Notes: generated from the letters alone by a model not told the origin. DNA of 64,000 nt from Candidatus Levyibacteriota bacterium (GCA_963790825.1 CAWBPM010000004.1:94987-158986); one strand, 5' to 3'; positions 11,163 to 42,098 are shown, numbered from the stretch's first letter. Program-made: numbers and translations.

Positions 11163-11358
11163 ATAAGGACATCTATTTAGGTTAATTTCGCATTTTTCGC
11201 ATTTATAGTATATAAAGACAGGAATTTTCTTGATTACACCAATACTTTACATAAATCGAACGGGCTATTCTCAAATTCATATCTAACTTCTAATTTCTTG
11301 GGTGGCATTCTTTTTAATATACTATATTTATATGGTAGAATACAATTCAGCTGAGTTT

Positions 11359-12033: not shown

Positions 12034-12036
12034 AAT

Positions 12037-14652: not shown

Positions 14653-14675
14653 AAAATATTGTATATTTTATTACG

Positions 14676-16447: not shown

Positions 16448-16575
16448 TTAGAGATTCTATGCAATTCTAAAATTCATGGATAGTAAATTTACTAAAGCTT
16501 TTTTCATCACTCTCCTGGCAATTGCCCCTCCCCTCTCTTGACAACTCCCCGGAAATGTCCCACACTAGAGATATT

Positions 16576-18363
16576 ATGCGATCTGCCCTTGCGTATTTTA
16601 TGGGAAAAAAGTTCTTGTCTTTTTTGGCTGTCATTTTTTTTGCAGCTGTTTTTTTCTTCTCCCCAACATCCAGTTTTGCTCAAGCTACTGCTTCCTCTCA
16701 ACAGACCACACAGACACAAGCCGCAAACAATTATCTTTTCCCGAAAGTTGATCCGGGCGTTGAGCAGAATCAATCTACCTTTGTTCAAGCAATTTTCCTA
16801 GAATCGATGGCCGGAGTTATCTGTCAACTGGATGGAGTCGATCCCACCAATCCGACCCATGGCTGTTTAACGATTAATCCGCAGACACACGCCTTTACCT
16901 ATTCACCTCTCCCGCAAAATGGAAAAGTTGGCGGTCTCATAGGCTTCTCGACAGTTGCAATGGGCGGTCTATATACTCCTCCCGCCAGCAGCGGTGAGTA
17001 TTTTCGCGACTTGGCGTATAATTTCGGAATTGCCAAACCGGCTGAAGCATCCGGATTTGATCAACTGGTACCGCTTCTAAACATGTGGAAATTATCCAGA
17101 AACATTGCCTATCTCTTTCTGGTAATTGTATTCATTATTTTAGGCGTTATGATCATGCTTAGAGTAAAGGTAAATCCGCGGACCGTGATGACAGTGCAAA
17201 ACCAAATACCCAGAATTATTATCGGCATTCTCCTGATTACCTTCTCCTATGCAATCGCCGGACTACTGGTCGATGCGATGTGGGTTACCACTTATTTTGC
17301 GATTAATGAACTTTCAAATATTCCCCATGGCTCTGTCGGCGGAGGAGCAGCTACGGCAAGTATTCTAAACCATCCTCTTTCTTGGTTTAATGACGTCCTC
17401 AGCAATGCTCCAGTCCCTCCGGGCGCCTCCCGCGCGCCATACGACTGTGGCACTATTAACCTTCCGGGAGGAAGCATCCCCGTTAAAGGAATAGCGTGTC
17501 TTACGGGAAAAATAGGGGACAGTTTCACCACTCTTCTCTCAAATCTTATTTCACAAGTTACCGGATTTGATAATAATAATAAATGTAGTTTTACAGATCC
17601 CACGTCTTGGGTTACGGGGTGTTTATATAATTTTGTCTTCTGGCTTATACATTTCATCATAAATCTTATCATTCTTATTACTATAGTGATTCTCCTGTAT
17701 CGTGTTTGGTTTATGCTGCTTAAAGCTTACATACTTATTCTCATATACGTCGCAACAGGTCCCTTGTGGATTATTGCCGGCATGCTTCCGGGAAGTACTT
17801 TTGGTTTTATTCCTTGGATCAAGCGTCTTTTGGCGCACCTGCTGGTATTTCCCGGTGTTGTTGCGCTTATTATTTTCGGTTTGGATATTGCCTCATCTTT
17901 CTCGCAACAAACAGGGGGGACGAACGGGCTATTTATTCCTCCGCTGATTGGCAATGTCGCCAGTAACACTAGCCCTGTTGGTAATATCGGCTGGATGATC
18001 GCACTTGGCGTGCTGCTTTTAGCCCCTGAAGTCTTACAAATGCTGAAGGACGCATTCGGCTTAAAAAGAAATCCATACACCCCGGCAATCGCGCTCGGAC
18101 TGGCAGCGGGTGCTAATCCGCTCAACGCCGGAGCCAACGCAGGTTGGAGTAGACTGATGAGACCTGAGGATCAGATGCATAATGCAGGGGCAGCCAGACG
18201 GATGCTATTAACCGCTGCTAAACCAAGTACTACTGACAATAGATTCCAAAAGGTCGCAAGAGGCGTGTTAAAAACAGTGATAGTTCCAAATAAGTGGGAA
18301 ACAGGATCAAAGACAATACAACCACAACAACCTGTCCAAGGCCAAGGAGGAGGAACGCCATAA
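16576..18363 (+). CDS. VirB6/TrbL-like polytopic membrane protein with Sec signal peptide (putative T4SS inner-membrane channel component)
   Basis: Signal peptide MGKKFLSFLAVIFFAAVFFFSPTSSFA|QA, at least 6 TM helices in the central region, Gly/Ala/Pro-rich C-terminal tail. Track ORF starts at TTG 16522. Plausible ATGs at 16555, 16576 and 16600. Confidence 0.45.
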   Translation: MRSALAYFMGKKFLSFLAVIFFAAVFFFSPTSSFAQATASSQQTTQTQAANNYLFPKVDPGVEQNQSTFVQAIFLESMAGVICQLDGVDPTNPTHGCLTINPQTHAFTYSPLPQNGKVGGLIGFSTVAMGGLYTPPASSGEYFRDLAYNFGIAKPAEASGFDQLVPLLNMWKLSRNIAYLFLVIVFIILGVMIMLRVKVNPRTVMTVQNQIPRIIIGILLITFSYAIAGLLVDAMWVTTYFAINELSNIPHGSVGGGAATASILNHPLSWFNDVLSNAPVPPGASRAPYDCGTINLPGGSIPVKGIACLTGKIGDSFTTLLSNLISQVTGFDNNNKCSFTDPTSWVTGCLYNFVFWLIHFIINLIILITIVILLYRVWFMLLKAYILILIYVATGPLWIIAGMLPGSTFGFIPWIKRLLAHLLVFPGVVALIIFGLDIASSFSQQTGGTNGLFIPPLIGNVASNTSPVGNIGWMIALGVLLLAPEVLQMLKDAFGLKRNPYTPAIALGLAAGANPLNAGANAGWSRLMRPEDQMHNAGAARRMLLTAAKPSTTDNRFQKVARGVLKTVIVPNKWETGSKTIQPQQPVQGQGGGTP

Positions 18364-18400: not shown

Positions 18401-21400
18401 TTAAGTAGCAAGTTGTTCAGTCGTACTAGATAATCCTTTATAGAAGCTGGCGAATAAGGCCCCAAAGAAATCAAGCCATGATTCTCCTCGGGAAAATCTG
18501 GCCAGAAAATTCGCGCCAATCGGTTTTTCGACGTGTTTTTTCCACTGTTTCGCAGTAAGAAATCTGCCTTCGCGCACCTGAAGAGTCGCCTCATCATTAT
18601 TAATATTCTCTGTCACATATTTTTCGGGGCTTGTCATAAAAAACTCTCTGATCAGCTGGATCATGCCGTCAGAATATTTAGATACCGTGCTTTTTTTGTT
18701 AATATGCTCCAGGATATCCTGGCGTACAGTATACATAAGTATATTTTTGGCTAAATCAAATGAGCCGTCTGCACTCACCTTAGCCCGTTCGCTTCCCCAG
18801 ATTCTCCGCTCTTCCGGCGTTTGGCTATCCTGTACATTTTTTTCATCATATATTCCCATTTTCAGCAGTTCCGGTCCGAACATATGCTGAGCTACTGTAA
18901 TATCTTCAAATACCAAATCGCCTTTATGCTCTGGATCTTTCCTCCATGACCGTATCTTATGAGCATAGGGAATTTTCGTCATTTCTATATACCGGCAATT
19001 TTTATATATTTCACCCAAAACCTTTTCCCGAAAACCGGGTTCTACCACTAATCTTCCTAGGTAATCATAATGCAGGTTTTTTTCAAACTCAAAGCCCTGC
19101 CCATGCCGGATAAACTCTCCGAAATCGACCGCATTTAAAAAGTGGATGCCGGCATACCTATTTTCCGCGTCTCCTGGACACTCAAATTTCTGGTATTTCA
19201 TTTGCGTCAGATCAACTTCGCTTCCTTCTCCGCCCTGGAGCACCTCGGCAAGTGTTTTGGTAAAATCATCTCCCCCCAAGGGACGCATGCGAAGTGCATC
19301 AAACATGCTCAGCATAACATGCTTTAAGCCTCTCAGCGTTTGCGGATTGCCAATTTCGTTTTTATTTGTTTGGTTTTCACGAAAGGCTTGGAAATTCATA
19401 AATCTGGTCGGAGCAACAAAAGCCCTGGAGCCGGTTTCCTGCTTCGCGTCAACGATGAAATACTGAGCAAGGTTTTTTGCCCAACCTTTGGCATAGACAA
19501 CCTCGTCGCTGTCAAGTCTCAAGTTTTTACAGACTGCATCTGAAATCGCATCTTCGACATAAGTGGTTATGTCTTTGGGTATGTCAGCTTCGTTAAAGAT
19601 ATTTAGGTTTTCCAGTTTCAATCTCCCTTGCCCGTCAGTACTGCTTTTTGTTCCTAAAATAGCTAAAGCGAATTTTTCGTTATTAATTTTTTTGTTATTA
19701 CTGCCTTTTCCAAAACCGAAGTAGTCCCGGGGATCCTCAGTGACTCTTGACCCTCTTGTTCCTGGATTTAAATCTGCCAACTTACTGAGAAATTCCTCCT
19801 TAACACTATCCCTAACTGTTTTAGCATCTTCTTGTCTGATTTTATCTTTTTCCTCGTCTGTTAAGCGTGTCCTTTCTGCTCGTTCCCTTACGGCAATCCG
19901 CATCTCGGATAATTCCTTCATGCTGGCAAAGGTAATCTTAAATTCTCCTTCCCCAACCGCATCCTTTTTGGCTATTTCACCAATATACTCATCTACGATA
20001 AGCAGTCTCGACTCTAGGAGGGCATCGTCTTTAAATTTTTCTTCCGTCTTCTTTTTCTCTGCCTTAAGTATACCGAGAACATATTCTTTGTATTGCTGTT
20101 TATAGTAGACATTTGTGTCCATAATGCTGGCAGCCAACGATTGCCAGAAGACATCAATTCCCCGATCAATTACTACAGGCTCCAGATGCTTCTGTCCATG
20201 AGAGTCAGTAAGCTCGCGGTAGAGGACTCTCTTCTCTTTATACTCTGTACCCCGTTTTATGACCGTTCGCTGCTCCCGAACCAGCTTAACCAGTCCCTTT
20301 TCTGTAACTATCTTGCCCTTTTCCATAAGAACCGGTTCTAAATATTCCCCATCTGAAGATTGTACTTTCCGGTAAAGGGTCTCTTCTTTTTCCATTTTCT
20401 CTCCTTCTTTTACCTTTTCAGCGTCATCGCTAGCATAACCCAGCTCAATTAGTCCGTCCTGGGTAACCGTACCGTCGCCCAGAAGTTTTATAAATAGGTT
20501 CCTGTTCGTTACTGTCGGTCTGTTATCTTGACCGTAAATAATTTCTCCATTTTCCCCGTCTCCTCTTCTTTTATAGTTTTCTGCCCGCCGGAACGTATTA
20601 TGTGAGAGTTCTGACATCGCGTTAAACAAAAGTACCTGGGTTTGGATTGCCCGGCCGACTTCTCCTTGTACCTCATCTTCCGTATAATCCCGAAGTTCTC
20701 TTTTATCTCTTCTGGCTAGTTTCAGCATTCGAATACTCCTGGCGCTCTGATTAACATTTCCCGAATCGGTAAAAATGCTTTTTCTCGAGTGGGCCTGAAG
20801 TACTTCCATGTATTTTTTAATATCATTCCTGCCTGCCGTAAAAATATTCACTTGTTTATTGTGGGCAAGCGAGCGGAGCCAGGCCTCGTAGAGAAAGTTC
20901 ATTTTCATTTTCATAAACTCCGGGTCAACCTGAGTATCCCAGCTAGTTTTATAGACAACATTTCCCTCTTCATCTTTTAAAACCTTTTCCTTTTCATCTT
21001 TAACTTCTGCAATATGGACTCTTTTGCGTCTGGAATATTGGTTGATTTTGATCATTTCTAAAAGTGAGATTTGGGCAAAATAGGTAGGAACGCTGGTTAA
21101 AGACAGAAGGTCTACCTCGCTCATTCCGGCGGAAGCAATTTCCTCAACCGACCGCTTCCGAACCCAAGAGAGAAAATTATGGTACTGAATTTCGCCGCTG
21201 CTATCAACAATTTCATGCGATCCGCCGATGTGATATTCAGGTCCTGCATAGCTCATAAGTCGGAAGAGAAGTTGATCTAAATTTCTCGGCTGGACCTGAA
21301 AATCATACTCTTCGCTGTTTGGCGTATCATCTTTAAAGTATTTTTGTAAATCTAATGCTTCTATTTGTGTTGTTCTTTGTTTAAGCTGCTTAAGCGTCAG

Positions 21401-22753
21401 GCTGCTGGGATCTTCCTGCATAATCTCCTGGAATTGTTTTTGCATGTCGGGCGTGACGGTCTCAAGATGCCCCATATTTCGCCTGACATCCGTAATCCGC
21501 AGACGAAGACCATTATACTGGCGTCGCGCGTCGTCCAATAAACGACTCTGTTTTTCTATGGGGAATAAGTTATTATCTTCAATCTTTTTGATTTCTTCTA
21601 TTCTATATCTTACCTGCGCACCTAGAGACATACCGAAGATAACAGCATCTTCTTCTGTCATGTTGGCAATCCCCCGTCTCGCCGCCTCTGACGCGACATC
21701 CCCTCCTCGCATCGTTCCTGCCAGAAGCCTTGGCAACACATCGCGAAAAAAAGTATTCAATGCTTCTGTATCGACATTGCTGTCAATTAATGCATTAAAA
21801 TTATTTAAATGCGCCTCTACTCTTGGATCGGACAAATCCATTAACCTTCCGTCAAGTGCGCCGGTAATCCAAGCTCTTTTCATCGCCCTTGCACATTCGG
21901 ATTTTCTATCGGCAGGCGCCCTGAGAAATGCTTCCTGCAACCCTCGATTCAGGTCGCTAAGCCGCTCTTCTTCTGTCTGTCCCGCTGCTCCTCCTTGCTG
22001 CGATTTATTCAGTGTATCAGCAATTAGATCTTCATATCCTCGCGGCTGAGGAGGAATATTTGGATTAGAAGGATTCATTTGGAAAAATCCGGGCTCTAAT
22101 CCCCGATCTGTTTGCATAATGATTTCTGCTTGTCTTTGTATCTCCGGCGGAAGCACTCCCTGAAGTCTCTCTAAATCTTTAGGGGGTAATTGAGGTGTAA
22201 TCATCCTTGCTTGTTCACGCTTTTTATCTACTTCTCCAAAAAATTTGTCAACAGGAATCTCTTGACCTCTTACAGCCTTCATAATAAGTGTTCTAGCATC
22301 AATTGAAACACGCTCTAGCTCGGGATTTACTCTTTCAGCTTCTCTTTCTAACGGTGATTGCATTTGCAAATAGAGATCTGCAAGCGTACCCATATCTAGT
22401 GTTACTAGAGACGGATCTTCACTGGTTCTTTCCTTAAATGCTCTTAGTAAATATCTTGCTTCGGGGTCTCTAATATCACTCTCCTGTATGAGAATCGGGT
22501 GATCCGACCTAGGTTTTTCTTGAAGTTGTGTTTCTCGCCTACCCAGTTGTCCGTCTGCATTTCCTTCCTGCGCCATATTAATATCTCCTCTTAGTCTAGC
22601 ATAGCCTGCCTGAGGACGCGGTGTCAATTTAATAGGCATTTCCCCTTCAATACTCCTGAAGACTTCGGTTACATTTGGCGTAATAAGCCTCTCTCCTTCG
22701 ATGCGAGGCGTAAATGATTGCGTGCGAATTGGCATCCCTTCTTTCATAGCCAC
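18401..22753 (-). CDS. Giant (1450 aa) highly charged hypothetical protein, no signal peptide or TM helices
   Basis: Uninterrupted 4.35 kb ORF, Glu/Lys/Arg/Asp-rich, with an internal repeat LYRKVQSSDGEYLEPVLMEKG / LYRELTDSHGQKHLEPVVIDRG. No Walker motifs or known domains recognised. Confidence 0.6.
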   Translation of the reverse strand: MAMKEGMPIRTQSFTPRIEGERLITPNVTEVFRSIEGEMPIKLTPRPQAGYARLRGDINMAQEGNADGQLGRRETQLQEKPRSDHPILIQESDIRDPEARYLLRAFKERTSEDPSLVTLDMGTLADLYLQMQSPLEREAERVNPELERVSIDARTLIMKAVRGQEIPVDKFFGEVDKKREQARMITPQLPPKDLERLQGVLPPEIQRQAEIIMQTDRGLEPGFFQMNPSNPNIPPQPRGYEDLIADTLNKSQQGGAAGQTEEERLSDLNRGLQEAFLRAPADRKSECARAMKRAWITGALDGRLMDLSDPRVEAHLNNFNALIDSNVDTEALNTFFRDVLPRLLAGTMRGGDVASEAARRGIANMTEEDAVIFGMSLGAQVRYRIEEIKKIEDNNLFPIEKQSRLLDDARRQYNGLRLRITDVRRNMGHLETVTPDMQKQFQEIMQEDPSSLTLKQLKQRTTQIEALDLQKYFKDDTPNSEEYDFQVQPRNLDQLLFRLMSYAGPEYHIGGSHEIVDSSGEIQYHNFLSWVRKRSVEEIASAGMSEVDLLSLTSVPTYFAQISLLEMIKINQYSRRKRVHIAEVKDEKEKVLKDEEGNVVYKTSWDTQVDPEFMKMKMNFLYEAWLRSLAHNKQVNIFTAGRNDIKKYMEVLQAHSRKSIFTDSGNVNQSARSIRMLKLARRDKRELRDYTEDEVQGEVGRAIQTQVLLFNAMSELSHNTFRRAENYKRRGDGENGEIIYGQDNRPTVTNRNLFIKLLGDGTVTQDGLIELGYASDDAEKVKEGEKMEKEETLYRKVQSSDGEYLEPVLMEKGKIVTEKGLVKLVREQRTVIKRGTEYKEKRVLYRELTDSHGQKHLEPVVIDRGIDVFWQSLAASIMDTNVYYKQQYKEYVLGILKAEKKKTEEKFKDDALLESRLLIVDEYIGEIAKKDAVGEGEFKITFASMKELSEMRIAVRERAERTRLTDEEKDKIRQEDAKTVRDSVKEEFLSKLADLNPGTRGSRVTEDPRDYFGFGKGSNNKKINNEKFALAILGTKSSTDGQGRLKLENLNIFNEADIPKDITTYVEDAISDAVCKNLRLDSDEVVYAKGWAKNLAQYFIVDAKQETGSRAFVAPTRFMNFQAFRENQTNKNEIGNPQTLRGLKHVMLSMFDALRMRPLGGDDFTKTLAEVLQGGEGSEVDLTQMKYQKFECPGDAENRYAGIHFLNAVDFGEFIRHGQGFEFEKNLHYDYLGRLVVEPGFREKVLGEIYKNCRYIEMTKIPYAHKIRSWRKDPEHKGDLVFEDITVAQHMFGPELLKMGIYDEKNVQDSQTPEERRIWGSERAKVSADGSFDLAKNILMYTVRQDILEHINKKSTVSKYSDGMIQLIREFFMTSPEKYVTENINNDEATLQVREGRFLTAKQWKKHVEKPIGANFLARFSRGESWLDFFGALFASFYKGLSSTTEQLAT

Positions 22754-22818: not shown

Positions 22819-24231
22819 TTAGCTTACGAACTTAAAACCGCGGCCCTTTATGGTTATGAGATGGGCGGGAAGATTCGGATCGTCCTCAATTTTCTTTCTG
22901 ACTCTAAAGATAAGCTGATCTACTGCCTGATCCGTTACTCCGGCAGTAGAGCGAAACGCCGACCAGACAATCTGGATTATTTGCTCCCTGTCCACAATTT
23001 CATCCGGATGACTGAGGAGAAATTGCAGCAACCTAAATTCCGAACCGGTCAGCCGGTCTGAGAGAACTATCTTCCCTTTACGAATCGTATTGGTTGTGCT
23101 GTCATATGTTATTTGTTCATTTTGTGACGGCGTATTTCGCAGCTCCAAATCGAGAAGCACGCTAAAAAGCGGAATCTGTATTTTCCTTTCCTTGATAAAT
23201 CCGATATTGGAAAAGTAGGCTGCAGTAAGCTTGTCCTCTTCGTTACCCGGGAAATCACCGAGAATAAAACGCTGCTCTTCGGGAGAAAATGAGCGCCAGA
23301 TCTCCAAGAGTGCCCCCCGAACCGGCCGATGGGTACAAAGCCAGGATGCAAATTTCGTTCCTTTTGTCACCTCATTATTTTCAGTTTCCAAAACCGTTTC
23401 CATACACAGTCTGGTCAGCTTGCCGTGTCCCGCAGTCAGCTGCAAAATGCTAGTATAAAGAGACTCCGGCAATTTTTCCTCTGATACCTTTTCTAGATAC
23501 TCCGTCCTAAATTTCAGAAGCGACTTATCCTGAACATTCATATAGACAATATTTCCGGCTAAAAATTCATGAAACTCCGCAAAAAGTACCGGCTCTACTA
23601 TATCTTCAAGCGGTTTATTTAAAGAAAAAATGACTGAAAAACGGTATTTGGCCCGGTTACGAAGCACCCGAAGATTGGCAAAAAAATCCGAAGTTAGCAT
23701 CGGGACATATTCCTCGAACCGGTCAAAAAGGAAAACTATGGTCAACTCTTTTTCTATTGCCAGAAAATCAATCGCCCGTTTTAAACCCTGAAAGAGTACC
23801 AGCTCGTCCTCAAGAAGCAGACTTTCTTTGAAAATTTCAGTTACCGCCTGGTATTCTGTCAGCATACCTCGTTCTCTGAGAGAATCCGTCAAGGAAAGAA
23901 AAAGGAATTTTGTCACGTCGTAGAGATTTCGCCGTCTGACTTCTGAAAAACTAACAAGCATAAAGTGCATCCATTTCTCATTCTCTCCGAGATGTTTCTG
24001 CCTGCCTGCTTTGTTAAAAACCAGAAACTTCAGGAGATTTCCTCTACCAACTCCGGGTAGACCGACGAGCTCTACGGAACTTCCCCGTTGGATAAATTTC
24101 AATAAACCCGAGACTTCCTGAAAATAAGAATCTTCGGGGTAAAGCGATTCAAATCTGGTGGGTTCAATGGGTTGTGCTATTCTTTTTTGCATCATATATC
24201 TTATTGTACTGCGCCTCAAAGCTTTCTTCAA
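22819..24231 (-). CDS. Transcriptional regulator: N-terminal P-loop-like NTPase domain fused to a C-terminal OmpR/PhoB-type winged-helix DNA-binding domain
   Basis: C-terminus LTGSEFRLLQFLLSHPDEIVDREQIIQIVWSAFRSTAGVTDQAVDQLIFRVRKKIEDDPNLPAHLITIKGRGFKF matches trans_reg_C. N-terminal VGLPGVGRGNLLKFLVF is a glycine-rich loop lacking the canonical Lys. Divergent from the first pilin gene. Confidence 0.6.
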   Translation of the reverse strand: MKKALRRSTIRYMMQKRIAQPIEPTRFESLYPEDSYFQEVSGLLKFIQRGSSVELVGLPGVGRGNLLKFLVFNKAGRQKHLGENEKWMHFMLVSFSEVRRRNLYDVTKFLFLSLTDSLRERGMLTEYQAVTEIFKESLLLEDELVLFQGLKRAIDFLAIEKELTIVFLFDRFEEYVPMLTSDFFANLRVLRNRAKYRFSVIFSLNKPLEDIVEPVLFAEFHEFLAGNIVYMNVQDKSLLKFRTEYLEKVSEEKLPESLYTSILQLTAGHGKLTRLCMETVLETENNEVTKGTKFASWLCTHRPVRGALLEIWRSFSPEEQRFILGDFPGNEEDKLTAAYFSNIGFIKERKIQIPLFSVLLDLELRNTPSQNEQITYDSTTNTIRKGKIVLSDRLTGSEFRLLQFLLSHPDEIVDREQIIQIVWSAFRSTAGVTDQAVDQLIFRVRKKIEDDPNLPAHLITIKGRGFKFVS

Positions 24232-24259: not shown

Positions 24260-25102
24260 ATGGTTTATTCTGAATATATGAGAAAAATAGATTTACTTTT
24301 TATTATTCCACTTTTTCTACTGGCATTTTTACTGCTTTCCTCAGTTTCTTCAGCCGCCGACCCAACCGCCCCTCCAGCCCCAACAGCCGTACCTCCCACT
24401 CCCACCCCTACAAGATCTTTCACTATTTCAGTACAGCCTCCTGATGAAGTTCATATTACCCAAAGCGTTATTGTCACAGTAATTCAAGCTCCTCCTGACC
24501 ATCTGAGTGGAGGAGGTACATATAATATTCTTTTTATGCAATTAGATAATATACTGCAAAATTGCAATGGATTCTCCTGTGCCGGTTTTGGACCATTACA
24601 TTGTCCTACTGTTAGTTGTACATTTCCTCCCTATCAAGTTCTACTCGGTCCTGCCAGTATACTCATCATTCGTGTCACCTCTGCCGATACCGCCCCATAC
24701 GAAATAGATAAAGAGCTGACGATAAATGGCTCTGTCCCCACACCAACTAACGTTCCCACTTCTCCTACAGAAATTCCCCCCCCGCCTGCCTGCACTACTC
24801 CGGGTACCGGAGGAGAATGTGCTGGTGTCGACACCGCTATTGGACCGGCAAGCACCACGCCGAATGAATTGATCACTACTATTATGAGAATACTCCTTAG
24901 TATTTCAGGCGGTATCGCATTGCTTCTTTTAATCTATGCGGGTTATAAAATCCTCACTTCCCGCGGAAATCCTGAAACAGTAAAAGGCGCTCGGGAGCTG
25001 ATCACCTCGGCAATTGCAGGACTTCTCCTTATTATTCTCTCCCTGGTCATCCTGGAAGTACTGGGAGTTGACATATTGCACATCCCAGGATTTAGCCATT
25101 AG
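24260..25102 (+). CDS. Secreted protein with Pro/Thr-rich linker, globular domain and C-terminal VirB2/TrbC-like pilin domain
   Basis: Signal peptide, PTAPPAPTAVPPTPTPT linker, a Cys pair (PPPACTTPGTGGECAGVD), then SISGGIALLLLIYAGYKILTSRGNPETVKGARELITSAIAGLLLIILSLVILEV (two hydrophobic helices around a charged loop). Contains a C8 tract. Confidence 0.6.
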   Translation: MVYSEYMRKIDLLFIIPLFLLAFLLLSSVSSAADPTAPPAPTAVPPTPTPTRSFTISVQPPDEVHITQSVIVTVIQAPPDHLSGGGTYNILFMQLDNILQNCNGFSCAGFGPLHCPTVSCTFPPYQVLLGPASILIIRVTSADTAPYEIDKELTINGSVPTPTNVPTSPTEIPPPPACTTPGTGGECAGVDTAIGPASTTPNELITTIMRILLSISGGIALLLLIYAGYKILTSRGNPETVKGARELITSAIAGLLLIILSLVILEVLGVDILHIPGFSH

Positions 25103-25135
25103 AAAAGTAAACTCTACTTGCATTTCACCCGAATA

Positions 25136-26353
25136 ATGGTTTACTCTAAAAGTGTGAGAAAAAATGTTTATGTTGTTTTATATATAGTTATATTCGTTTT
25201 TGTTGGTTTTATTTTAGATACTGTTTTCTTTAGCGAAAAAGACTACGCTAATTCAGATTCTGATCAGGCGATTCTTACTTGTGCACAAGTTATACATGCG
25301 CCGGATTTTAAGACCTGTACAGGAACTATTGAAGATACTACTACCGGTACTGCAATACCCACTGCTATACTACATTTACACGTTAAGAGTACTAGTGATG
25401 GGGACCAGACATATCCCCTGACAAGTGCCAATGCGCTTCTTCAGCAGGAATTTACTCAACCACAAGACGGCTCCTATAAATATTGCGCCTACGCGAACGG
25501 TAGCCCGGGAGCCCCAAGCATAATATCTGTTTTTGCGAGTGCTATCGGATATGATGATAGTAACTCGATCGATATTCCCGGTACTACTGTGTGTCCACCA
25601 GGCGGAACAATTAAATTAACAAAGAAAGCTGCCGGTTCTCCTCTTGGCTACTATTGTACTATTCCTAATGGAGCACAACTAACAGACCACAATGCCAACT
25701 CCAGTTGTCAACAAGCACCACTAGATCCTGAAATTGCCCCTCATGTAACGATAGTGGGCTCTAATGTATACGCAACTGTAGATGCTTGCACTAATAATTG
25801 CAAAAAAGTCTTCTATGACAAAGAAATACCGGGAGGAGCATGTGGTATCGTGGGCCCTGATTTCTGGAACACGTATGTTCCCGCCATTGAAATCCTTGCT
25901 TGGTCGATGGATACATGTACCGCAACACAGCAATCCGGAGGAAATCCCCCAGCTACCGCTCCGCCTACCAACACCCCCGTTCCTCCTACTCCCACATCTA
26001 CTCCTCTTCCTCCCGAGCCGGCATGCACCCATAACACGGGTGGGGAATGTCCAAGTGTGGATACAGCACTCGGAGTAATTAATGTTGGCGCAGGAGGCGA
26101 AGTGGGCAACGAAGGAATAGTAACCAGCATTATGGGAGTGCTTCTCAGTATCTCGGGAGGACTTGCGCTGCTTCTGATTATTTACGCGGGATACAAACTA
26201 CTTACCTCCGGCGGAAATCCTGACACAGTAAAAGGCGCACGGGATCTCCTGACTGCGGCAATTGTAGGACTTTTGTTTATTATTCTCGCTCTGGTTGTCT
26301 TGCAGGTTATCGGCGTTGATATCCTGCATATACCAGGCTGGACTGGTGTCTAG
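25136..26353 (+). CDS. Paralogous larger secreted protein with C-terminal VirB2/TrbC-like pilin domain
   Basis: Starts MVYSKSVRK, like its neighbour (MVYSEYMRK). PPATAPPTNTPVPPTPTSTPLPP linker, EPACTHNTGGECPSVD Cys pair, C-terminal SISGGLALLLIIYAGYKLLTSGGNPDTVKGARDLLTAAIVGLLFIILALVVLQV. Track start 25118 is TTG, trimmed to ATG. Confidence 0.6.
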   Translation: MVYSKSVRKNVYVVLYIVIFVFVGFILDTVFFSEKDYANSDSDQAILTCAQVIHAPDFKTCTGTIEDTTTGTAIPTAILHLHVKSTSDGDQTYPLTSANALLQQEFTQPQDGSYKYCAYANGSPGAPSIISVFASAIGYDDSNSIDIPGTTVCPPGGTIKLTKKAAGSPLGYYCTIPNGAQLTDHNANSSCQQAPLDPEIAPHVTIVGSNVYATVDACTNNCKKVFYDKEIPGGACGIVGPDFWNTYVPAIEILAWSMDTCTATQQSGGNPPATAPPTNTPVPPTPTSTPLPPEPACTHNTGGECPSVDTALGVINVGAGGEVGNEGIVTSIMGVLLSISGGLALLLIIYAGYKLLTSGGNPDTVKGARDLLTAAIVGLLFIILALVVLQVIGVDILHIPGWTGV

Positions 26354-26374
26354 TTGAGTATATATAATAATTCT

Positions 26375-26692
26375 ATGCAAAAACTCTTAGCTTTATCTCT
26401 TCAAGGAACACCGATTGCAGCCCCCGGTAACGTTCCCACCGGCGGATTATCGCCAAATGGTTGGAATATTATCTATACGGGAATCTCTATTTTTCTCCTT
26501 ATTATAGTGGCTCTGGCTCTCATATTTCTCATTTGGGCGGGCATCAGGCTTACCATGTCGGAAGGAGATAAGGCAAAGGTTGATGCATCGAGAAAGCAGG
26601 CAATCTACTCCATAGTCGGACTCGTTATCGCCCTTTTGGCATTTGCCATTATAAATATCGTCGGCAATCTGTTTGGAGTACAGTTGTTCTGA
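26375..26692 (+). CDS. Small VirB2/TrbC-like pilin
   Basis: IYTGISIFLLIIVALALIFLIWAGIRLTMSEGDKAKVDASRKQAIYSIVGLVIALLAFAIINIV: two TM helices flanking a charged loop. Track start 26354 is TTG. ATG at 26375 is preceded by a TATATAAT -10-like box. Confidence 0.55.
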   Translation: MQKLLALSLQGTPIAAPGNVPTGGLSPNGWNIIYTGISIFLLIIVALALIFLIWAGIRLTMSEGDKAKVDASRKQAIYSIVGLVIALLAFAIINIVGNLFGVQLF

Positions 26693-26780: not shown

Positions 26781-28281
26781 ATGTCAAAAAAAGTAAAAAT
26801 AATATTTCTTGCACTCTGTTTGTTCTTTTTTATACTTTTTGCCTTCATAGGAGTCCTTAATCTAAGCATCGATTTCGGCTGGTACTTACGCATCGGAGAC
26901 ATTATATTAAACCATGGTTTTCCTAAAACTGATCCGATGATCTACTCCATGCCCAGCTATCCCTTTATTGACCACGAGTGGCTGGTTGAGGTTATAATTG
27001 CTTTACTTTACCCCTATGTTAAATTACTGGGAATCTCTGCTCTTTTTTTCCTTAATCGCCGTAGTATCGGTAGCATTGCCGGTTTACGCGTTCCGCTTAT
27101 ATCGCTATTGGCTCTTTATCCCCTTACTTCTGGCTTTAAGTACTCTTTTCTTCTACGAAGGGATCGCTATTGAAATGACCAGCTGGTTCTTCGTGTCCCT
27201 TCTCATAACTATCCTATTAAAAAATACTCTGTGGAAAAAGGTTAAATATTTAGTACCTTTTCTTTTTCTTCTCTGGGCAAATATACACGGCAGCTTTCCT
27301 TTGGGCATCGTTCTTTTATTGCTTTTTATAGGAGTACGCACAGTTACCGAAAGGAAGATTCTTCTATCTGATATTTTCGTCTTATTGAGCAGCATTTTCA
27401 TAACTCTTGTTAATCCGTACGGCATTAATCTTTGGCATGAAGTATGGATGCAGATGTCAGATACCGCGGCGCATCAGACAATTTCGGAGTGGCAGCCGCT
27501 GCTTTTCTCCGATGGATTTCATTTGCCTATACTTTGGGTGCTGTTAGTACTGGCAAGCTTTCTGTTCGTATTTTATAGAAGGCGGTACTCTGTTCTGGAG
27601 TTTGTGTTTTTTTTATTCTTTCTTCTCCTTGCTTTCAGCGCAAGAAGACAACTTCCGTTTTTGCTAATTTATTCGATGCTACCCATATATAGGGGCATTG
27701 GCTTTCTCTCCGCTGATGCCGTAAAGATAAAATATGGCGCGCTGCGGCTTCGAAACGGCATACTGCTCCTTATCGCCATAGTTCTAGTTCTTTCGTGTAT
27801 AGAGTTATTCTTCGGATTTCGTAATGCAATTCTTAATCCTTTGGTTATCTATCCTAATAAGGCAATTGTCTATTTGGAAAACCACCCCACTTCCGGACAA
27901 ATATTTTCAATTAACGAATGGGGCGGATATCTGGAATGGAAATTACCACAAAAACAGATATTCTCAGATGGCTTGACAGAAACTTGGAGGTGGCATGCTC
28001 CAAATTCGAAAGAAAGCGATAATGTGTTTATGGAGTATAAAAACATTATTCAGGGAAAAATTACGCTAAGTAGTACTGTTGAAAAATATAACATTGATAC
28101 GCTTCTTCTTTATAAACAGCAAACAATTAGCAAGCCGAATCCTCCGTTTATAAAATTTATAGATGCATTTTTACCGAATAAGAAAAAGACAAATAAAAAA
28201 TCAATATATACCCAAATAGAACAAATGGGATGGAAAATCGTCTATAAAGACAGTGTCGCGGTCATTTACCGCAAGCAATAA
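26781..28281 (+). pseudogene. GT-C-fold-like polytopic membrane protein split by a +1 frameshift at a T7 homopolymer (ORFs 26781..27173 and 26998..28281)
   Basis: Both frames read through TCTTTTTTTC (27043-27049). Upstream frame gives ...DHEWLVEVIIALLYPYVKLLGISAL, downstream frame continues FFSLIAVVSVALPVYAF... with at least 10 further TM helices. Removing one T fuses them into one protein of about 500 aa. Confidence 0.45.
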
Positions 28282-28405
28282 AGATACTCAGATGGCAGAC
28301 CTATATTAATTTTGCTCATTGTTTAGCCTTAGAAGCACCTCTTGACAAGAAGAAAATTCTATTGCAATAATAGATATAGATTAAATAAATCGAAACAATA
28401 AATAT

Positions 28406-28825
28406 ATGAGTACACAATTAAAAAAATTTGCAATCATTTCCTCAACAGTAGTACTTTACACATTAGCTGCTTCCCAGACTTTTGCTGCTGGTGCTGCTAG
28501 CTTTGGATCGGGGTGTAATGGTAGTTTTAGTGCTCTTTGCGGTAACAGCGCATCATTTGCTACTATCTTTAGTTGGGTTGTTAATCTCTTGTTCTTTGCT
28601 GCAATCGCAATTGCGCTTATCTTCTTAATTTGGAATGGTATTCGCTGGATTCTTTCCGGTGGAGATAAAGGAAAAGTTGATGAGGCAAGAAAAGGTGTTA
28701 TTGCAGCTCTGATTGGGCTTGTGGTTGCACTTGTTGCCTATTTCATCATCAATCTTGTATTAAATCTCTTGGGACTGGGTGGACTAAATTCTCTTAGTGT
28801 TCCCTCTATTACTCTTCTCTCTTAG
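28406..28825 (+). CDS. VirB2/TrbC-like pilin with signal peptide
   Basis: Signal peptide FAIISSTVVLYTLAASQTFA, Cys pair (SGCNGSFSALCGNS), then LLFFAAIAIALIFLIWNGIRWILSGGDKGKVDEARKGVIAALIGLVVALVAYFIINLV. Confidence 0.6.
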   Translation: MSTQLKKFAIISSTVVLYTLAASQTFAAGAASFGSGCNGSFSALCGNSASFATIFSWVVNLLFFAAIAIALIFLIWNGIRWILSGGDKGKVDEARKGVIAALIGLVVALVAYFIINLVLNLLGLGGLNSLSVPSITLLS

Positions 28826-28966
28826 TCTTTTTAGTTCTTAATTCTAACTTCTCTTCTTTATTGTAAGTTCTTCTACTCGTGATTGCGCTTGCCGCCCTGC
28901 CATAATTCGCTTTATTTATAGTAAGTTATATTCCTAAAAGCATATTTTTATGACATAATTTAGCAA

Positions 28967-30154
28967 TTGAGCAATATGTTTCTTTTTAAACACAGAATTT
29001 TACTCTTGCTTTTACTTCCATTAACCACAGTCCTTTTATATTGTTTTATCACAAACTTTTATTCCCTTTTCCCCTTGCAAACTTTCAGTTATTTCAATAA
29101 CTATAATCACTACATTGCTGATCCCCGCGCATCCGGTCAAAAATTTAATTTATTATTGTCGTTAGCGCCAGCTGATGCTCAGTGGTATTTAAAAATTGCT
29201 GATTCAGGCTATCCCATCCGTCCCCGTGTTATTTACTCCGGCAGTCACCAGACAATAGACGGCGCTACCTATGCCTTCTTCCCGCTCTATCCAATTACCA
29301 TCGCACTCGTTAATTTCTTTTTGAAAAACATTGTGTTATCTGCTTTTATTCTTACGCAATTACTATTCCTTCTTAATATTGTCAGCCTTTACTATGTCAT
29401 AAAGAAGTTGTATAACGAACAACTGGCCATAAAGACCTTGTTTCTCCTCTTTTTATTTCCTTTCAGCATTTTCTTTCGCAGTTATTTCAGCGAAAGTCTC
29501 TTTCTTTTGGAACTCATTTGGTTTAGTTATTTTCTTATTAAAAAAAGGCTATTTATAAGCTCTCTCCTGCTTGGCTTACTGCTTGTAACCCGCGGGAATG
29601 GATTATTCTTGCTGCCTGTCTTCTTTTGTGTTGTGTTTAGAGATGTGCAAAATCGTCGGTTATTTATTAAAAAGAGTATTCTGTATGGTTTTATTTTAAT
29701 ACTACCATTTTTAGCTTGGATCGCTTATTGCTACCTGCAAACAGGAAACGGTTTCTATTTTATTATTGCCAGAAAAGCCTGGTTCCAATATCCTTTTCCG
29801 CTTCCTCTTTTTTATAACATAGCATTGGTACTGCTTGTACGATACTTGCCCTTTCATTTCTTTCATCTCTCGCAACTTGATGTTTTTTTTGTAGTTCTCG
29901 ATATGATACTCTTGGTTTTTTCGAAAAAGTTTCTCCGTCCCGTACTTTGGTGGGTAGCATTTACTCTTTGGATAAGTCCTCTGTCAACTCAGGACGCCAT
30001 GTCCTCCACTAGGTTTCAAATTATCTACTTTCCCCTTTTCATCTATGCAGCGTATATACTAAAAGGAAGATGGTACTTGGCAACGCTTGTCTTCTTTTCT
30101 ATATGTCTGCTCATCGTATCTCTTCTTTTTGTTAACTGGTATTGGATAGGATAG
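28967..30154 (+). CDS. Polytopic membrane protein, GT-C-type glycosyltransferase-like (PIG-V/GT76-like WY..IA..GY motif)
   Basis: 395 aa, about 10 TM helices. First extracytoplasmic loop LAPADAQWYLKIADSGYP resembles the WDA..Y..IA..GY loop of PIG-V-type mannosyltransferases. Confidence 0.45.
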   Translation: MSNMFLFKHRILLLLLLPLTTVLLYCFITNFYSLFPLQTFSYFNNYNHYIADPRASGQKFNLLLSLAPADAQWYLKIADSGYPIRPRVIYSGSHQTIDGATYAFFPLYPITIALVNFFLKNIVLSAFILTQLLFLLNIVSLYYVIKKLYNEQLAIKTLFLLFLFPFSIFFRSYFSESLFLLELIWFSYFLIKKRLFISSLLLGLLLVTRGNGLFLLPVFFCVVFRDVQNRRLFIKKSILYGFILILPFLAWIAYCYLQTGNGFYFIIARKAWFQYPFPLPLFYNIALVLLVRYLPFHFFHLSQLDVFFVVLDMILLVFSKKFLRPVLWWVAFTLWISPLSTQDAMSSTRFQIIYFPLFIYAAYILKGRWYLATLVFFSICLLIVSLLFVNWYWIG

Positions 30155-30753
30155 ATATTGTACCTTTACCCAATAATCATTGCTATACTTTAGAAATAAT
30201 GATTGTCTTCAAATTCTTAATCATTGCTTTTCTCCTCCTCGTCGCAGCGATTCCCCTAGCGCTTATCGCTGCTTTCTTCTTCGGACCACCCTTCATTCCG
30301 ACCCCTAAAAAAACAGTAAAAGAAATGGTTGCGCTTGCCGGTATTTATAAAGGGGATACAGTACTGGACATGGGCTCTGGAGACGGCAGAATGCTCCTAG
30401 AAGCAGCGAAATGCGGAGCACGCGCAGTTGGCTGGGAAATTAATCTCTACCTTGTTTTATGGACAAAAATATTAGCATATCGTTATGGCGTTAATAGACT
30501 AGTAGAAGTCCATTGGGGAAGCTACTATCAGGCGGATTTTTCAAAAGCAAATGTCGTCTTTCTCTATGGTATTACTCACGAAATGGAAAAAATTGAACAG
30601 AAACTGCAAAAAGAGTTAAAACCTGGATCGAAAGTTATTTCTTATACGTTTGTTTTCCCGCATCTCAAGCCGACTAAAACCCTTTCCGAAAATTACTGTC
30701 TATACTATCGCCTGATTTCTTTCCTGCTATTATACTTATTGTATTTTATTTAA
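30142..30753 (+). CDS. Class I SAM-dependent methyltransferase with N-terminal TM anchor
   Basis: Motif I VLDMGSGDGRML, then an acidic post-I loop (AVGWEIN). N-terminal hydrophobic helix FLIIAFLLLVAAIPLALIAAFFF. Confidence 0.65.
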   Translation: MDRIDIVPLPNNHCYTLEIMIVFKFLIIAFLLLVAAIPLALIAAFFFGPPFIPTPKKTVKEMVALAGIYKGDTVLDMGSGDGRMLLEAAKCGARAVGWEINLYLVLWTKILAYRYGVNRLVEVHWGSYYQADFSKANVVFLYGITHEMEKIEQKLQKELKPGSKVISYTFVFPHLKPTKTLSENYCLYYRLISFLLLYLLYFI

Positions 30754-30774: not shown

Positions 30775-31095
30775 ATGGACTGGAGTTCTATTCCGGGATG
30801 TATTGGGGCACTAGGCGAAGCGCATTTACAATGCTTGCCGGCAGTGTTCCAAAATCTTATAAACGGCGCGCTTATTTTGGCAGGAATCGCTGCGGTTATT
30901 TTTATCATTCTTGCCGCGTACCGACTGATAACCTCCCGGGGAAACCAGCAAGGAGTAAGCAAAGCCCGGAAAACGCTTATCTTTGCAATTGCCGGTTTGG
31001 TAATTATTTTATTATCCTTTTTCCTGGTTAATTTTCTGGCAAATATTACCGGAACAAATTGCATCACCCAAATGGGCTTTACCAATTGCCAATAA
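30775..31095 (+). CDS. VirB2/TrbC-like pilin
   Basis: Cys pair GCIGALGEAHLQC, then LILAGIAAVIFIILAAYRLITSRGNQQGVSKARKTLIFAIAGLVIILLSFFLVNFL. GGAGG located 13 nt upstream of the ATG. Confidence 0.6.
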   Translation: MDWSSIPGCIGALGEAHLQCLPAVFQNLINGALILAGIAAVIFIILAAYRLITSRGNQQGVSKARKTLIFAIAGLVIILLSFFLVNFLANITGTNCITQMGFTNCQ

Positions 31096-31261: not shown

Positions 31262-32611
31262 ATGGATAATCACCCGATTCCGCAAGACGTTACCGGATTT
31301 CAATTTAAACTTGTGGGCAGTATGACCGTAAAGCAATTTGCCCAACTTGCGGGGCCGTGCATTATAGCAGTTATTCTTTATTATTCCCCTTTTTTTATTC
31401 TGATAAAAATTATCGGTATTCCGTTTTTTGTTCTTTTCGGGCTTTGTCTCGCATTTGTTCCGATAGAAGGCCGTCCGATTGACGTGATGGCATCGCATTT
31501 CTTAAGAGCCCTTTTCGCTCCTAATCAATTTGTCTTCCATAAAATAGGGAGGCAGTTGGCATTTACTACTGTAGATTTAAGGCGTACTGCCAAAGAAAAG
31601 GTCTCTGTACATATTGATCCTCTAAAAAAAAAGCAACTTCAGGCATTTTTACAAAACGTTCAGAGTAGACCACAAAGCCCGTCTGACTCAAAAGAAGATG
31701 AGTTTCTTAAGTCTCTTGATTCGATCCAATTTCAAGGACCGGTTCTTTTGCCCGCTTCTTCGCCAATGCAGCAGCGAGGAGAGGCGGCTTCGCCAATAAG
31801 CACCAACCCCTTGCCTCCACAACCGCAAATGCCGCCAACAAAAAACATTGCGCAAACACAAAATCAGGCTTCCTTAAATCAACAAACAGCAGCACCTATG
31901 GACAATGTTAAGCCGGATATCCCCCTACCACAGATGGTTAAGCCATCAACTGCTGCTCAATCTATAAACTCGTCTTTGCCGTATGTTCCGCAGCCGAATA
32001 GTCTGCCTCAGAAGAATATTGACTCTACGCCAAACCCAAAGGAAAGTTTAGGACAGGAAGAACAACCCGAGTATAAGGAGACTGAGCAATTATCGCAAAA
32101 ATTAGATGATATCGCTCATGAGAAACAGAAACTAGAAGATGAGCTTCGGGCTTTAAAGAGTCAATTAGCCGGTCGGCAAACAGTTTCTGTTCCTATTGCC
32201 AAACCTGTAGATAGACAGGTAGAACAACCGGCTCAGGAGGAAGACAGCCCACATGTTTTGAAAGTACCAAAGTCCCTGACTACCAGCATTGGGGCTCCTG
32301 CTATGCCTGATTCTCCCAATCTCATTGCGGGCGTTGTGAAAGACCCAAGAGGAAATGTTCTGCAAAATATTCTGGTAGAGGTAAAAGATAAAGAGGGCAG
32401 TCCTGTTCGGGCGTTTAAAACCAATGCGCTGGGTCAATTCTCCTCAGCAACGCCACTAATAAATGGCGATTATACTATAGAATTTGAAGATCCAAAGGAT
32501 CAACATAAATTTGATACGATTGAACTCAGGGCGAGTGGCGAGATTATGTTGCCCATCGAAGTGATCTCGAGAGATGCGCGGGAGGAGTTGAGGCGCGCGT
32601 TATTTACCTAA
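31262..32611 (+). CDS. PrgI/VirB3-like membrane protein with long Pro/Gln-rich region and C-terminal domain
   Basis: N-terminus IPQDVTGFQFKLVGSMTVKQFAQLAG followed by two TM helices resembles PrgI-family (VirB3-like) proteins. Sits directly upstream of the VirB4-like ATPase, as in Gram-positive-type T4SS. Confidence 0.5.
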   Translation: MDNHPIPQDVTGFQFKLVGSMTVKQFAQLAGPCIIAVILYYSPFFILIKIIGIPFFVLFGLCLAFVPIEGRPIDVMASHFLRALFAPNQFVFHKIGRQLAFTTVDLRRTAKEKVSVHIDPLKKKQLQAFLQNVQSRPQSPSDSKEDEFLKSLDSIQFQGPVLLPASSPMQQRGEAASPISTNPLPPQPQMPPTKNIAQTQNQASLNQQTAAPMDNVKPDIPLPQMVKPSTAAQSINSSLPYVPQPNSLPQKNIDSTPNPKESLGQEEQPEYKETEQLSQKLDDIAHEKQKLEDELRALKSQLAGRQTVSVPIAKPVDRQVEQPAQEEDSPHVLKVPKSLTTSIGAPAMPDSPNLIAGVVKDPRGNVLQNILVEVKDKEGSPVRAFKTNALGQFSSATPLINGDYTIEFEDPKDQHKFDTIELRASGEIMLPIEVISRDAREELRRALFT

Positions 32612-40318: not shown

Positions 40319-40567
40319 ATATTACTACTTGTAGTTGTAGTAGTGTATATGGAAAAGTGGAAAATTGCAAGAGAAGCTTACCCCATAATACAACAAAAAA
40401 CAGAGAACACTTTTTTATTAAAAGCTAAATATTGAAAGACAGCAGACTTAATTTGTGCAATAATAAATAATTAGCTGATAAACAACAGGTATAAAAAATG
40501 TGGAAAAAAAGTTGATATTTTTGGGCATAACTTGTTAATAAGGTAATTGATGGGTTATCCCCCTTTT
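40319..40567. promoter_or_regulatory. AT-rich dnaN-dnaA intergenic region with imperfect DnaA boxes, candidate oriC/DUE
   Basis: AGTGGAAAA (about 40356), TGTGGAAAA (about 40499), TTATCCCCC (about 40552), plus long A/T runs (AATAATAAATAATTAGCTGATAAACAAC). Confidence 0.35.
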
Positions 40568-41917: not shown

Positions 41918-42098
41918 ACGGTGAATACATAGAACAGAAATAATTATCGGGAAGAAGATGAATGGTAAAAAAAACAAATGCGCTTATCATAGTAACTACC
42001 GGTACCATGCAGTGTAATAATGTGGATAACTCTTTGTCAAGTAGGAAAAGCTCTTTATCTTTGACCGATAATCCCTTTTCTGCTATACTCAGATCAGA
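41918..42098. promoter_or_regulatory. dnaA-rpmH intergenic region: perfect DnaA box TGTGGATAA (about 42021-42029), weaker boxes, and the rpmH promoter (TTGACC-18nt-TATACT about 42061-42090)
   Basis: The consensus DnaA box is seen directly. TTGACC/TATACT are spaced 18 nt apart and end about 8 nt before the rpmH ATG, so the transcript is nearly leaderless. Confidence 0.5.

Follow-up and report, generated by a model that had tools for sequence, protein, structure and literature searches.

Pilin genes with a glycosyltransferase gene at their side are described for the group IV pilins of Pseudomonas aeruginosa, where the GT-C arabinosyltransferase TfpW is encoded beside pilA, takes its sugar from a polyprenyl-phosphate donor and modifies exposed Ser/Thr residues of the pilin on the periplasmic side. 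To our knowledge, a GT-C gene beside its own pilin substrate is known for such type IV pili, but not for VirB2-type pilins. Here we analyze a 64-kb window (the whole stretch of DNA studied, to which all coordinates refer) from a Candidatus Levyibacteriota bacterium, ultrasmall and of the Patescibacteria type (GCA_963790825.1 CAWBPM010000004.1:94987-158986), in which two genes for predicted GT-C-fold membrane glycosyltransferases, MP1 and MP2, lie among VirB2-like pilin genes of a type IV secretion system (T4SS). The likeness to TfpW is one of direct gene adjacency and not of sequence; TfpW acts on type IV pilins and not on VirB2-type T4SS pilins, whereas the window encodes two GT-Cs with predicted activity.

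Other described systems resemble the locus in part. Actinobacterial O-mannosylation, in which Ppm1 (GT2) and Pmt (GT39) glycosylate Pro/Thr/Ala-rich segments of Sec-exported proteins, shares the logic of a GT2 synthase combined with a GT-C enzyme, and some MP2-family members match PMT_2. In the window, by contrast, MP2 stays under the PMT_2 threshold, MP1 carries no PMT signature, MIR domains are absent and the GT2 gene lies 15 kb away. A similar division of labor is found in systems of the GtrA/GtrB/GtrC type, where a GT2 loads undecaprenyl phosphate with sugar, a GT-C performs the transfer outside the cell and a small membrane protein is the third component, but they modify O-antigen or teichoic acids, whereas the suspected acceptors here are pilins and the small membrane protein is a DUF2304 protein rather than GtrA. 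From the oligosaccharyltransferases (OSTs) STT3, AglB and PglB, MP1 differs in lacking similarity at the sequence level, in its length (about 500 against 700 to 870 aa) and in carrying WGGY instead of WWDYG; its adjacency to GT2 genes in other genomes, moreover, suggests monophosphate-linked monosaccharides as donors and not diphosphate-linked oligosaccharides.

T4SS loci with pilin arrays are already known from the candidate phyla radiation (CPR) (PMC12102498, PMC10633639, PMC12857230), including the VirB2-like pilin arrays in Patescibacteria T4SS loci (Quinonero-Coronel 2025, PMC12102498; Wang 2023, PMC10633639). In S. epibionticum, the only genetically tractable member tested, the T4SS and pilin array are essential for epibiotic growth (PMC10633639). 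The three papers neither identify the genes that interrupt the arrays nor mention glycosylation or array GT-C genes, and literature keyword searches found no report of T4SS-pilin glycosylation. The interval studied here, 26781-30753, belongs to a T4SS locus of the Patescibacteria type (monoderm, MPF-FATA-like) and is located within its array of VirB2-like pilins, as part of a single co-oriented run of genes on the + strand (24.2-38.9 kb). An earlier note made from the sequence of the window had reported pilins, membrane proteins, a methyltransferase, linkers and a sugar-gene island, all of which are present where it had placed them. The array contains the following features (HMM, hidden Markov model; ORF, open reading frame):

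24260-25102, + strand: pilin fusion, 280 aa (PF18895, E = 3.9e-8, 33.7 bits against a cutoff of 26.6)
25118-26353, + strand: pilin fusion, 411 aa (PF18895, E = 6.9e-6, 26.5 bits against a cutoff of 26.6; local pilin HMM, E = 2e-20)
26354-26692, + strand: small VirB2-like pilin, 112 aa (PF18895, E = 1.1e-7)
26781-28281, + strand: MP1, predicted GT-C-fold glycosyltransferase, reading frame broken (ORFs 26781-27173 and 26998-28281)
27043-27049, + strand: T7 homopolymer, site of the MP1 frame break; T6 would mend the frame
28406-28825, + strand: "p139 type" pilin, loop motif W-I-L-S-G-G-D-K (PF18895, E = 3.9e-9)
28967-30154, + strand: MP2, predicted GT-C-fold glycosyltransferase, intact, without a soluble domain, PIG-V/Gpi18-like and PMT_2-like
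30142-30753, + strand: membrane-tethered class I S-adenosylmethionine (SAM) methyltransferase, aKMT/PrmA-like (PDB 5bxy, E = 2.4e-22; aKMT 5fa8/5jwj, E about 1e-21)
30775-31095, + strand: "p106 type" pilin, Cys-containing N terminus, C-terminal ...GFTNCQ (PF18895, E = 2.5e-8)

Fold and family of the two membrane proteins

The earlier note had correctly placed its first membrane protein, but what it had seen there are two overlapping ORFs of one gene that is split by a +1 frameshift. Removal of one T from the T7 run yields a protein of 499 aa that is collinear with homologs of 470 to 510 aa, which cover 95 to 100% of its length, and that keeps every invariant residue of its family. The architecture of MP1 is that of an OST, with a polytopic transmembrane (TM) domain of about 10 hydrophobic segments by hydropathy, followed by a globular extracytoplasmic domain of the OST type at the C terminus. 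An AlphaFold2 model of the MP1 homolog P0007 (pLDDT of 89.7) superposes on known GT-C enzymes, and its ten best matches in Foldseek were all OST catalytic subunits; the nearest structures are protein-modifying OSTs and DPY19, with the C-terminal domain included in the match. The catalytic-type residues are in place as well. Of 34 family members, all have D31 and 94% have D51 in the first extracytoplasmic loop (EL1), and both are kept in the window protein. The conserved positions comprise D-x-D31-F-G-W, D51, W67, W165-x-N167-x-H169, P-Y-G, E236-W237, R289 and W-G-G-Y, among which D31, D51, N167, H169, E236 and R289 make up the invariant acidic/basic residues of the extracytoplasmic loops. The loop motif DHEWL, which the earlier note had singled out, survives in W67 (at least 80% conserved); its remaining positions are less conserved, and the invariant acid of EL1 is D31 in D-x-D-F-G-W. 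The WWDYG motif of OSTs was not found; the family shows W-G-G-Y-L-x-W about 30 residues past the last TM helix instead. The model indicates that MP1 is a GT-C-fold glycosyltransferase; its family gave no match in NCBIfam and has neither a Pfam nor an NCBIfam model. This family is represented by 41,815 sequences at 50% identity (E <= 1e-3).

MP2 likewise shows a GT-C structure with the conserved EL1 aspartate, D70, in an extracytoplasmic loop. Its best structural matches are PIG-V/Gpi18, ALG3/9/12 and PimE (GT87), and its homologs are labeled "Gpi18-like mannosyltransferase" (JGI) or GT39 in the source databases. At the sequence level, the window protein reaches 16.3 bits where PMT_2/GT39 (PF13231) requires 26.1 (E = 0.012) and thus falls outside that family, although 18 of 34 MP2 homologs match PMT_2 at E <= 0.01 (best, 8e-8). 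It differs from the PIG-V and GT87 families in matching neither PIG-V/Mannosyl_trans2 (PF04188), which is matched by 3 of the 34 homologs, nor PF09594; an MP2 profile searched against PDB sequences returned a chance match only. Based on these structural comparisons, MP2 is best described as a PIG-V/ALG/PMT_2-like GT-C. For both proteins, then, structure comparison yields GT-C-fold enzymes and not the transporters or Wzy/O-antigen polymerases that the earlier note had named as the outcome that would count against it.

A link between MP1 and a second enzyme of this class of small GT-Cs is also seen in single polypeptides. Three 50%-identity representatives of about 900 aa (P0194, P0224, and P0233) consist of an N-terminal GT87 (PimE-like) domain fused to a C-terminal MP1 domain; an interpretation of these proteins as MP2-MP1 fusions was rejected by BLASTP. 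The fusions are a Rosetta-stone link of MP1 to a second GT-C. In addition, at least 10 independent loci, most of them non-CPR, have a GT2 gene like that of the window less than 200 bp from an MP1 homolog. This adjacency and the GT87-MP1 fusions suggest that the donors are polyprenyl-monophosphate sugars and that MP1 has a second small GT-C as its partner, and a polyprenyl-phosphate-linked sugar is our candidate donor for MP1 and MP2.

Pilins of the array and their coupling to MP1 and MP2

The five pilins align as a two-TM hairpin with a conserved loop, which places them in the T4SS_pilin family (PF18895). Four of them exceed the gathering score of 26.6 bits (33.7, 32.3, 36.9, and 34.3), while the 411-aa protein comes just under it (26.5), and a locally built pilin HMM matched no other gene anywhere in the 64-kb window. 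The 280-aa fusion is composed, in this order, of a signal peptide, a Pro/Thr-rich linker, a globular region, a second Pro/Thr linker and a C-terminal VirB2-like T4SS_pilin hairpin, whereas the 411-aa fusion combines a Cys-rich extracellular domain and a Pro/Thr linker with its C-terminal hairpin. The Pro/Thr-rich linkers that the earlier note had ascribed to the pilin fusions are therefore present after the signal peptide in both proteins but confined to these two large fusions. Since they are located downstream of signal peptides, the linkers are predicted to be extracytoplasmic.

To see how far the enzymes and the pilins occur together, we examined 35 GTDB loci centered on close MP2 homologs (36 with the window). 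MP1 was present within 5 kb of MP2 in 19 of the 35 loci, in 12 of them at less than 200 bp, and pilins were present within 10 kb in 6. When the neighbors were clustered, MP1 emerged as the sole strongly conserved partner of MP2 (20 of 36 loci), followed by GT2, DnaG and NUDIX proteins (6 each) and pilins (5). Locus L008 is syntenic with the window: four pilin genes, MP1, a pilin, MP2 and a pilin are followed by PrgI and VirB4, with no methyltransferase gene in between. Four further loci (L013, L034, L037, and L041) contain MP2, MP1 and pilins in other orders, with L037, which is labeled Saccharibacteria, showing two pilins at a distance of 1 kb from MP2-MP1, and in six MP1-centered loci (L003, L005, L056, L067, L072, and L082) a pilin gene is the immediate neighbor, at less than 150 bp.

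In a neighbor-joining tree of 106 MP1 sequences, the pilin-adjoining proteins all fell into one clade of 29 leaves (clade A), where they are interspersed with MP2-only and partnerless loci; outside this clade, 1 of 77 had pilins. A pilin gene is the direct neighbor of MP1 or MP2 in 8 of 28 clade A loci and in the window, compared with none of 66 other MP1 loci. Within clade A, pilins are concentrated near the MP block: less than 0.5 kb away from it their density is 4.5 per 10 kb, compared with 0.17 per 10 kb at a distance of 6 to 10 kb, a 26-fold decrease. Two pilin paralogs recur beside MP1 in varying order and orientation, namely the p139 type with its W-[IV]-x-S-G-G-D-K loop and the p106 type with its Cys-containing N terminus; L003, L005, L008, L013, L034 and L056 each have a p139-type ortholog next to MP1 and also a p106-type ortholog. 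Across the pilin-bearing loci, MP1 is only 24 to 39% identical to that of the window, and even in the syntenic L008 the identity is 24% for MP1 and 47% for MP2. The co-occurrence that the earlier note had proposed as a check is thus seen within a single clade, in the window and in 8 of 28 loci, while most MP1-MP2 pairs and the 66 other MP1 loci lack a nearby pilin.

Possible roles: pilin glycosylation, a general envelope function or an inactive module

The GT-C identity of MP1 and MP2 and the pairing of the two are well supported. Within clade A, the recurrent and rearranged adjacency to two pilin paralogs supports a functional tie to pilins, and the same enzyme-pilin neighborhood in some relatives suggests that the pili may be sugar-coated. 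By analogy with TfpW and Ppm1/Pmt, glycosylation of extracytoplasmic pilin segments would be the simplest mechanism. That the array carries an inserted extracytoplasmic glycosylation module, with two GT-Cs that modify the pilins, is in our judgment a possibility falling a little short of an even prospect. In such a module, a GT2 of the ArnC/DPM1 type at the cytoplasmic face would load a sugar onto undecaprenyl phosphate, the candidate being the GT2 gene with its DUF2304 neighbor at 11.3 to 12.4 kb, and the lipid-linked sugar would be flipped across the membrane. MP1 could then move the sugar to exposed Ser/Thr- or Pro/Thr-rich segments of pilins seated in the membrane after Sec export, and MP2 might add or extend a further sugar.

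Several observations weigh against this reading. Fourteen of the 20 MP1-MP2 pairs have no nearby pilin, nor do five close homologs of MP1 whose 10-kb flanks are complete (L001, L002, L051, L052, and L055), and no PF18895-type pilin gene was found in the 66 fetched non-clade A loci. The pilins that accompany MP1, when checked for N-x-S/T sequons, conserved Ser/Thr residues and Pro/Thr richness, revealed no conserved acceptor. The MP1 family profile matched none of the PDB sequences at E <= 10, and none of the 34 family members matched STT3 (PF02516) or any other Pfam family at E <= 1. The sugar island is 10 to 15 kb away from MP1 and MP2, none of the fetched loci contains a homolog of its PglD or DegT gene, and GT4 matches were obtained in only four loci, at 2.3 to 7.8 kb from the MP block. 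No homolog of the methyltransferase was found in any pilin, MP1 or MP2 locus, the syntenic L008 included. Finally, the MP1 family spreads beyond the CPR and is common in non-CPR metagenomes, and synthesis of a glycolipid or lipoglycan would account equally well for the GT87 fusions and the adjacency to GT2. Of the pilin-glycosylation system outlined in the earlier note, the GT-C folds and a clade-limited coupling to pilins hold up, whereas most pairs are pilin-free and neither the methyltransferase nor the GT4/DegT/PglD genes are coupled to it.

Much of this would be expected if MP1 and MP2 formed a general envelope-glycan module, which would use polyprenyl-phosphate sugars to build a lipoglycan, a wall polymer or an S-layer or to modify many secreted proteins, and whose position in the array in some lineages would reflect the clustering of surface-structure genes near oriC and no dedicated modification of pilins. 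The housekeeping contexts of most MP1-MP2 pairs (DnaG, RpoD, NUDIX, and ComF-like proteins), the very large size and wide reach of the MP1 family, the recurrent GT2 adjacency, the fusion to a domain that resembles glycolipid mannosyltransferases of the PimE type, and the missing acceptor motif all favor this explanation, as does the closeness of MP2 to enzymes that lengthen lipid-linked glycans, namely those of the ALG, glycosylphosphatidylinositol (GPI) and PimE types. However, two specific pilin paralogs adjoin MP1 or MP2 in at least nine loci in shuffled order and orientation and at low MP1 identity, which passive synteny explains poorly, and the structures nearest to MP1 belong to protein-modifying enzymes. 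On balance, a general envelope role seems possible but somewhat doubtful. Alternatively, the module may be defunct or switchable in this genome, with MP1 a recent pseudogene or a phase-variable gene that is turned off by a one-base change in the poly-T run and with MP2 active at most. The identical T7 run in L127, a second and independent assembly of this locus from Logan, speaks for an inactive MP1 and, together with the frameshift itself, against a working module; at another homopolymer, where it differs from the window, L127 carries the homolog-consistent version. The intact set of conserved residues suggests that the event would be recent, and an MP2 homolog in a GTDB metagenome-assembled genome (L041, 9971-11172) is similarly split into two overlapping ORFs. 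On the other hand, L127 differs from the window by one base (a C) at about 30686 within 4.9 kb compared, so the window holds at least one homopolymer indel error or variant and an artifact is possible at T7 too. Moreover, T7 is short for classical phase variation, and T7 to T8 runs are ordinary in these Phe-rich genes. We therefore consider a defunct or switchable module rather unlikely, while noting that the frameshift may be genuine or else an assembly artifact, and that the module may accordingly be off, phase variable or misassembled in this genome. Two specific explanations of the T7 run were tried and rejected: a conserved phase-variation tract, since homopolymers of 7 or more nucleotides are common among the homologs but variably placed, and rescue by a -1 programmed frameshift, since a +1 shift is required. 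In membrane genes of this kind, rich in Phe codons and in homopolymers, frameshifts may be recurrent, whether they stem from assembly or from biology.

Returning to pilin glycosylation, its most specific form, in which VirB2-type T4SS pilins of Patescibacteria are glycosylated by a dedicated array-encoded pair of a compact OST-like MP1 and a PIG-V/ALG-like extender MP2, is one that we would call tentative and more probably wrong than right. If true, the pilus would be the first of the conjugative (T4SS) type to be found glycosylated, and the enzyme pair would be a bacterial equivalent of the combination of ALG extender and STT3 transferase in the endoplasmic reticulum lumen. The faster divergence of MP1 than of MP2 between the syntenic loci would fit a diversification of glycan or acceptor alongside pilin variation, and if genes that interrupt the arrays modify pilins, surface glycans would become a candidate determinant of host recognition, of phage or immune evasion and of pilus stability across a third of bacterial diversity. 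Apart from pilins, MP1 stands for a very large unmodeled GT-C family that is structurally nearest to OSTs and recurrently associated with GT2 and with another GT-C, such that defining its acceptor would close a sizeable annotation gap in bacterial envelope biosynthesis.

Methyltransferase, sugar island and neighboring genes

The membrane-anchored SAM methyltransferase of the earlier note is present, with one N-terminal TM helix by hydropathy, but it is not conserved as part of the module. In its catalytic domain it is a homolog of small aKMT/PrmA-like methyltransferases, among them the crenarchaeal protein-lysine methyltransferase aKMT, from which it differs by the TM anchor. Because the single helix is followed by Lys residues, this domain is predicted to be cytoplasmic. 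In the window, the 3' end of the gene is misframed by the 1-nucleotide indel at about 30686 and reads into an artifactual hydrophobic tail; the L127 version gives the C terminus ...KITVYTIA, in agreement with the homologs (IFIYTI), so that the true stop is, as judged from this alignment, probably near 30715. The homologs measure 171 to 176 aa and all share the TM anchor and the motif FFGPPFIPTP. A role as a conserved module component was rejected, given that the five homolog contexts (L128, L129-131, L132, L133, and L134) are all without pilins. Among these, only L128 has GT-C neighbors (a DUF2079 protein adjacent and a PIG-V-like gene 5 kb away); a 492-aa neighbor in L129 that had been considered as MP1 proved to be a secreted Ig-like protein. 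The distribution of its homologs marks the gene as a lineage-specific insertion or accessory.

As for its substrate, the best NCBIfam match, NF041081 (protein-lysine N-methyltransferase, E = 2.9e-18), the homology to aKMT, the predicted cytoplasmic location and the conserved Lys/Arg residues in the pilin loops (S-G-G-D-K...A-R-K) would agree with methylation of the Lys-rich cytoplasmic pilin loop before pilus assembly, and not of sugars. We consider this improbable, however, as the protein reaches only 66.3 bits against a cutoff of 200 and hence lies far outside NF041081, its homologs reside in unrelated, pilin-free contexts, and the gene is missing from L008 and all other pilin loci. Unrelated methyltransferases accompany MP1 and GT2 elsewhere: a soluble UbiE-like enzyme overlaps the 3' end of an MP1 homolog (L005, 11488-12237; L005/L006), with an Acyl_transf_3 gene nearby, and a GT2-methyltransferase fusion lies 1 kb from MP2-MP1 in L019 (7635-8930). 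Because of these cases, sugar methylation is at least as likely as methylation of pilin-loop Lys residues. The enzyme is less likely to be a core part of the system than to act at the cytoplasmic face, where it would methylate a lipid-linked sugar or a protein close to the membrane.

The surroundings of the array contain the following features:

11302-12396, + strand: ArnC/DPM1-type GT2 and DUF2304 small membrane protein (PF00535, E = 4.5e-26; PF10066, E = 8e-16)
12389-16447, + strand: rest of the AT-rich sugar island, with two GT4, a PglD-like acetyltransferase and a DegT aminotransferase
16522-18363, + strand: 613-aa polytopic membrane protein, signal peptide, no Pfam match
18401-22753, - strand: 1,450-aa ORF, between the putative VirB6-like gene and the candidate regulator
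22819-24231, - strand: 470-aa protein with a C-terminal OmpR/PhoB-type winged helix (Trans_reg_C, E = 1.9e-17) and an N-terminal P-loop-like region
31262-32611, + strand: PrgI/VirB3-like T4SS membrane protein with a CarboxypepD_reg domain (PF12666, E = 6e-6; PF13620, E = 1.2e-6), syntenic in L008
33276-35345, + strand: VirB4-type T4SS ATPase (PF19044 TraG P-loop, E = 5.9e-25; L008 homolog, E = 2.4e-242)
39203-41977, - strand: dnaN and dnaA, immediately downstream of the T4SS cluster

The matching lipid-linked sugar island of the earlier note is AT rich (GC content of 0.25 to 0.32, and of 0.25 to 0.36 in the part at 12389-16447) and does contain GT2, DegT, PglD-like and two GT4 genes. A linkage of its GT4/DegT/PglD part to MP1 and MP2 in other genomes was rejected, as only GT2 recurs beside the MP block. 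Compared with PDB sequences, the GT2 protein (11302-12033) matches ArnC (9bhc, E = 2.4e-15) and dolichyl-phosphate mannose synthase (DPMS; 5mlz, E = 4.5e-10); with the adjacent DUF2304 protein it is, by these similarities, a candidate polyprenyl-phosphate sugar synthase for the donor-making step. At the edge of the island, on the - strand, a 476-aa polytopic membrane ORF without a Pfam match (9732-11162) overlaps a 198-aa ORF (9260-9856) by 125 bp on the same strand; the pair (9260-11162) looks like another frameshift-split gene, possibly for a glycan-related membrane enzyme. Further downstream on the + strand, a 448-aa protein with a Wzy_C/O-antigen-ligase domain (44005-45351; PF04932, E = 3.5e-16) is encoded between YidC (42794-43621) and a DUF4012 protein (45532-48210). 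The PF04932 family includes WaaL and the O-oligosaccharyltransferases PglL/PilO. In a monoderm without lipopolysaccharide, this protein could be a second candidate protein or glycan ligase and possibly the real user of an undecaprenyl-diphosphate-linked glycan made by the island. A homolog (E = 3e-86) is located 7 kb from MP2 in L023.

On the 3' side of the pilin array, the PrgI/VirB3-like gene, the VirB4-type ATPase and a CHAP peptidase precede dnaN and dnaA, an arrangement that is the one described for Patescibacteria T4SS loci. Since dnaN and dnaA follow immediately downstream, the T4SS locus is placed at the replication origin, a position reported as typical for Patescibacteria T4SS. On the 5' side, the 613-aa protein is probably a VirB6/PrgH-like channel subunit of this T4SS; its homologs adjoin pilin arrays in L002, L005/L006, L012 and L008, and in L008 the homolog comes right behind the last pilin gene. 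A scan for promoters and terminators found no more sites than expected by chance; one near-consensus promoter-like site on the + strand (28342-28371; TTGACA, an 18-nucleotide spacer with TG, and AATAAT, 11 of 12 matches) is located just 5' of the p139-type pilin gene, although such sites overall were not above chance. The 1,450-aa ORF had no Pfam match and no homolog in any fetched locus. The pilin/MP1 clusters of L003 and L005 are likewise flanked by large unannotated proteins (1,170 to 1,230 aa). A candidate for regulating the array is the 470-aa winged-helix protein, whose gene is divergently oriented to that of the first pilin.

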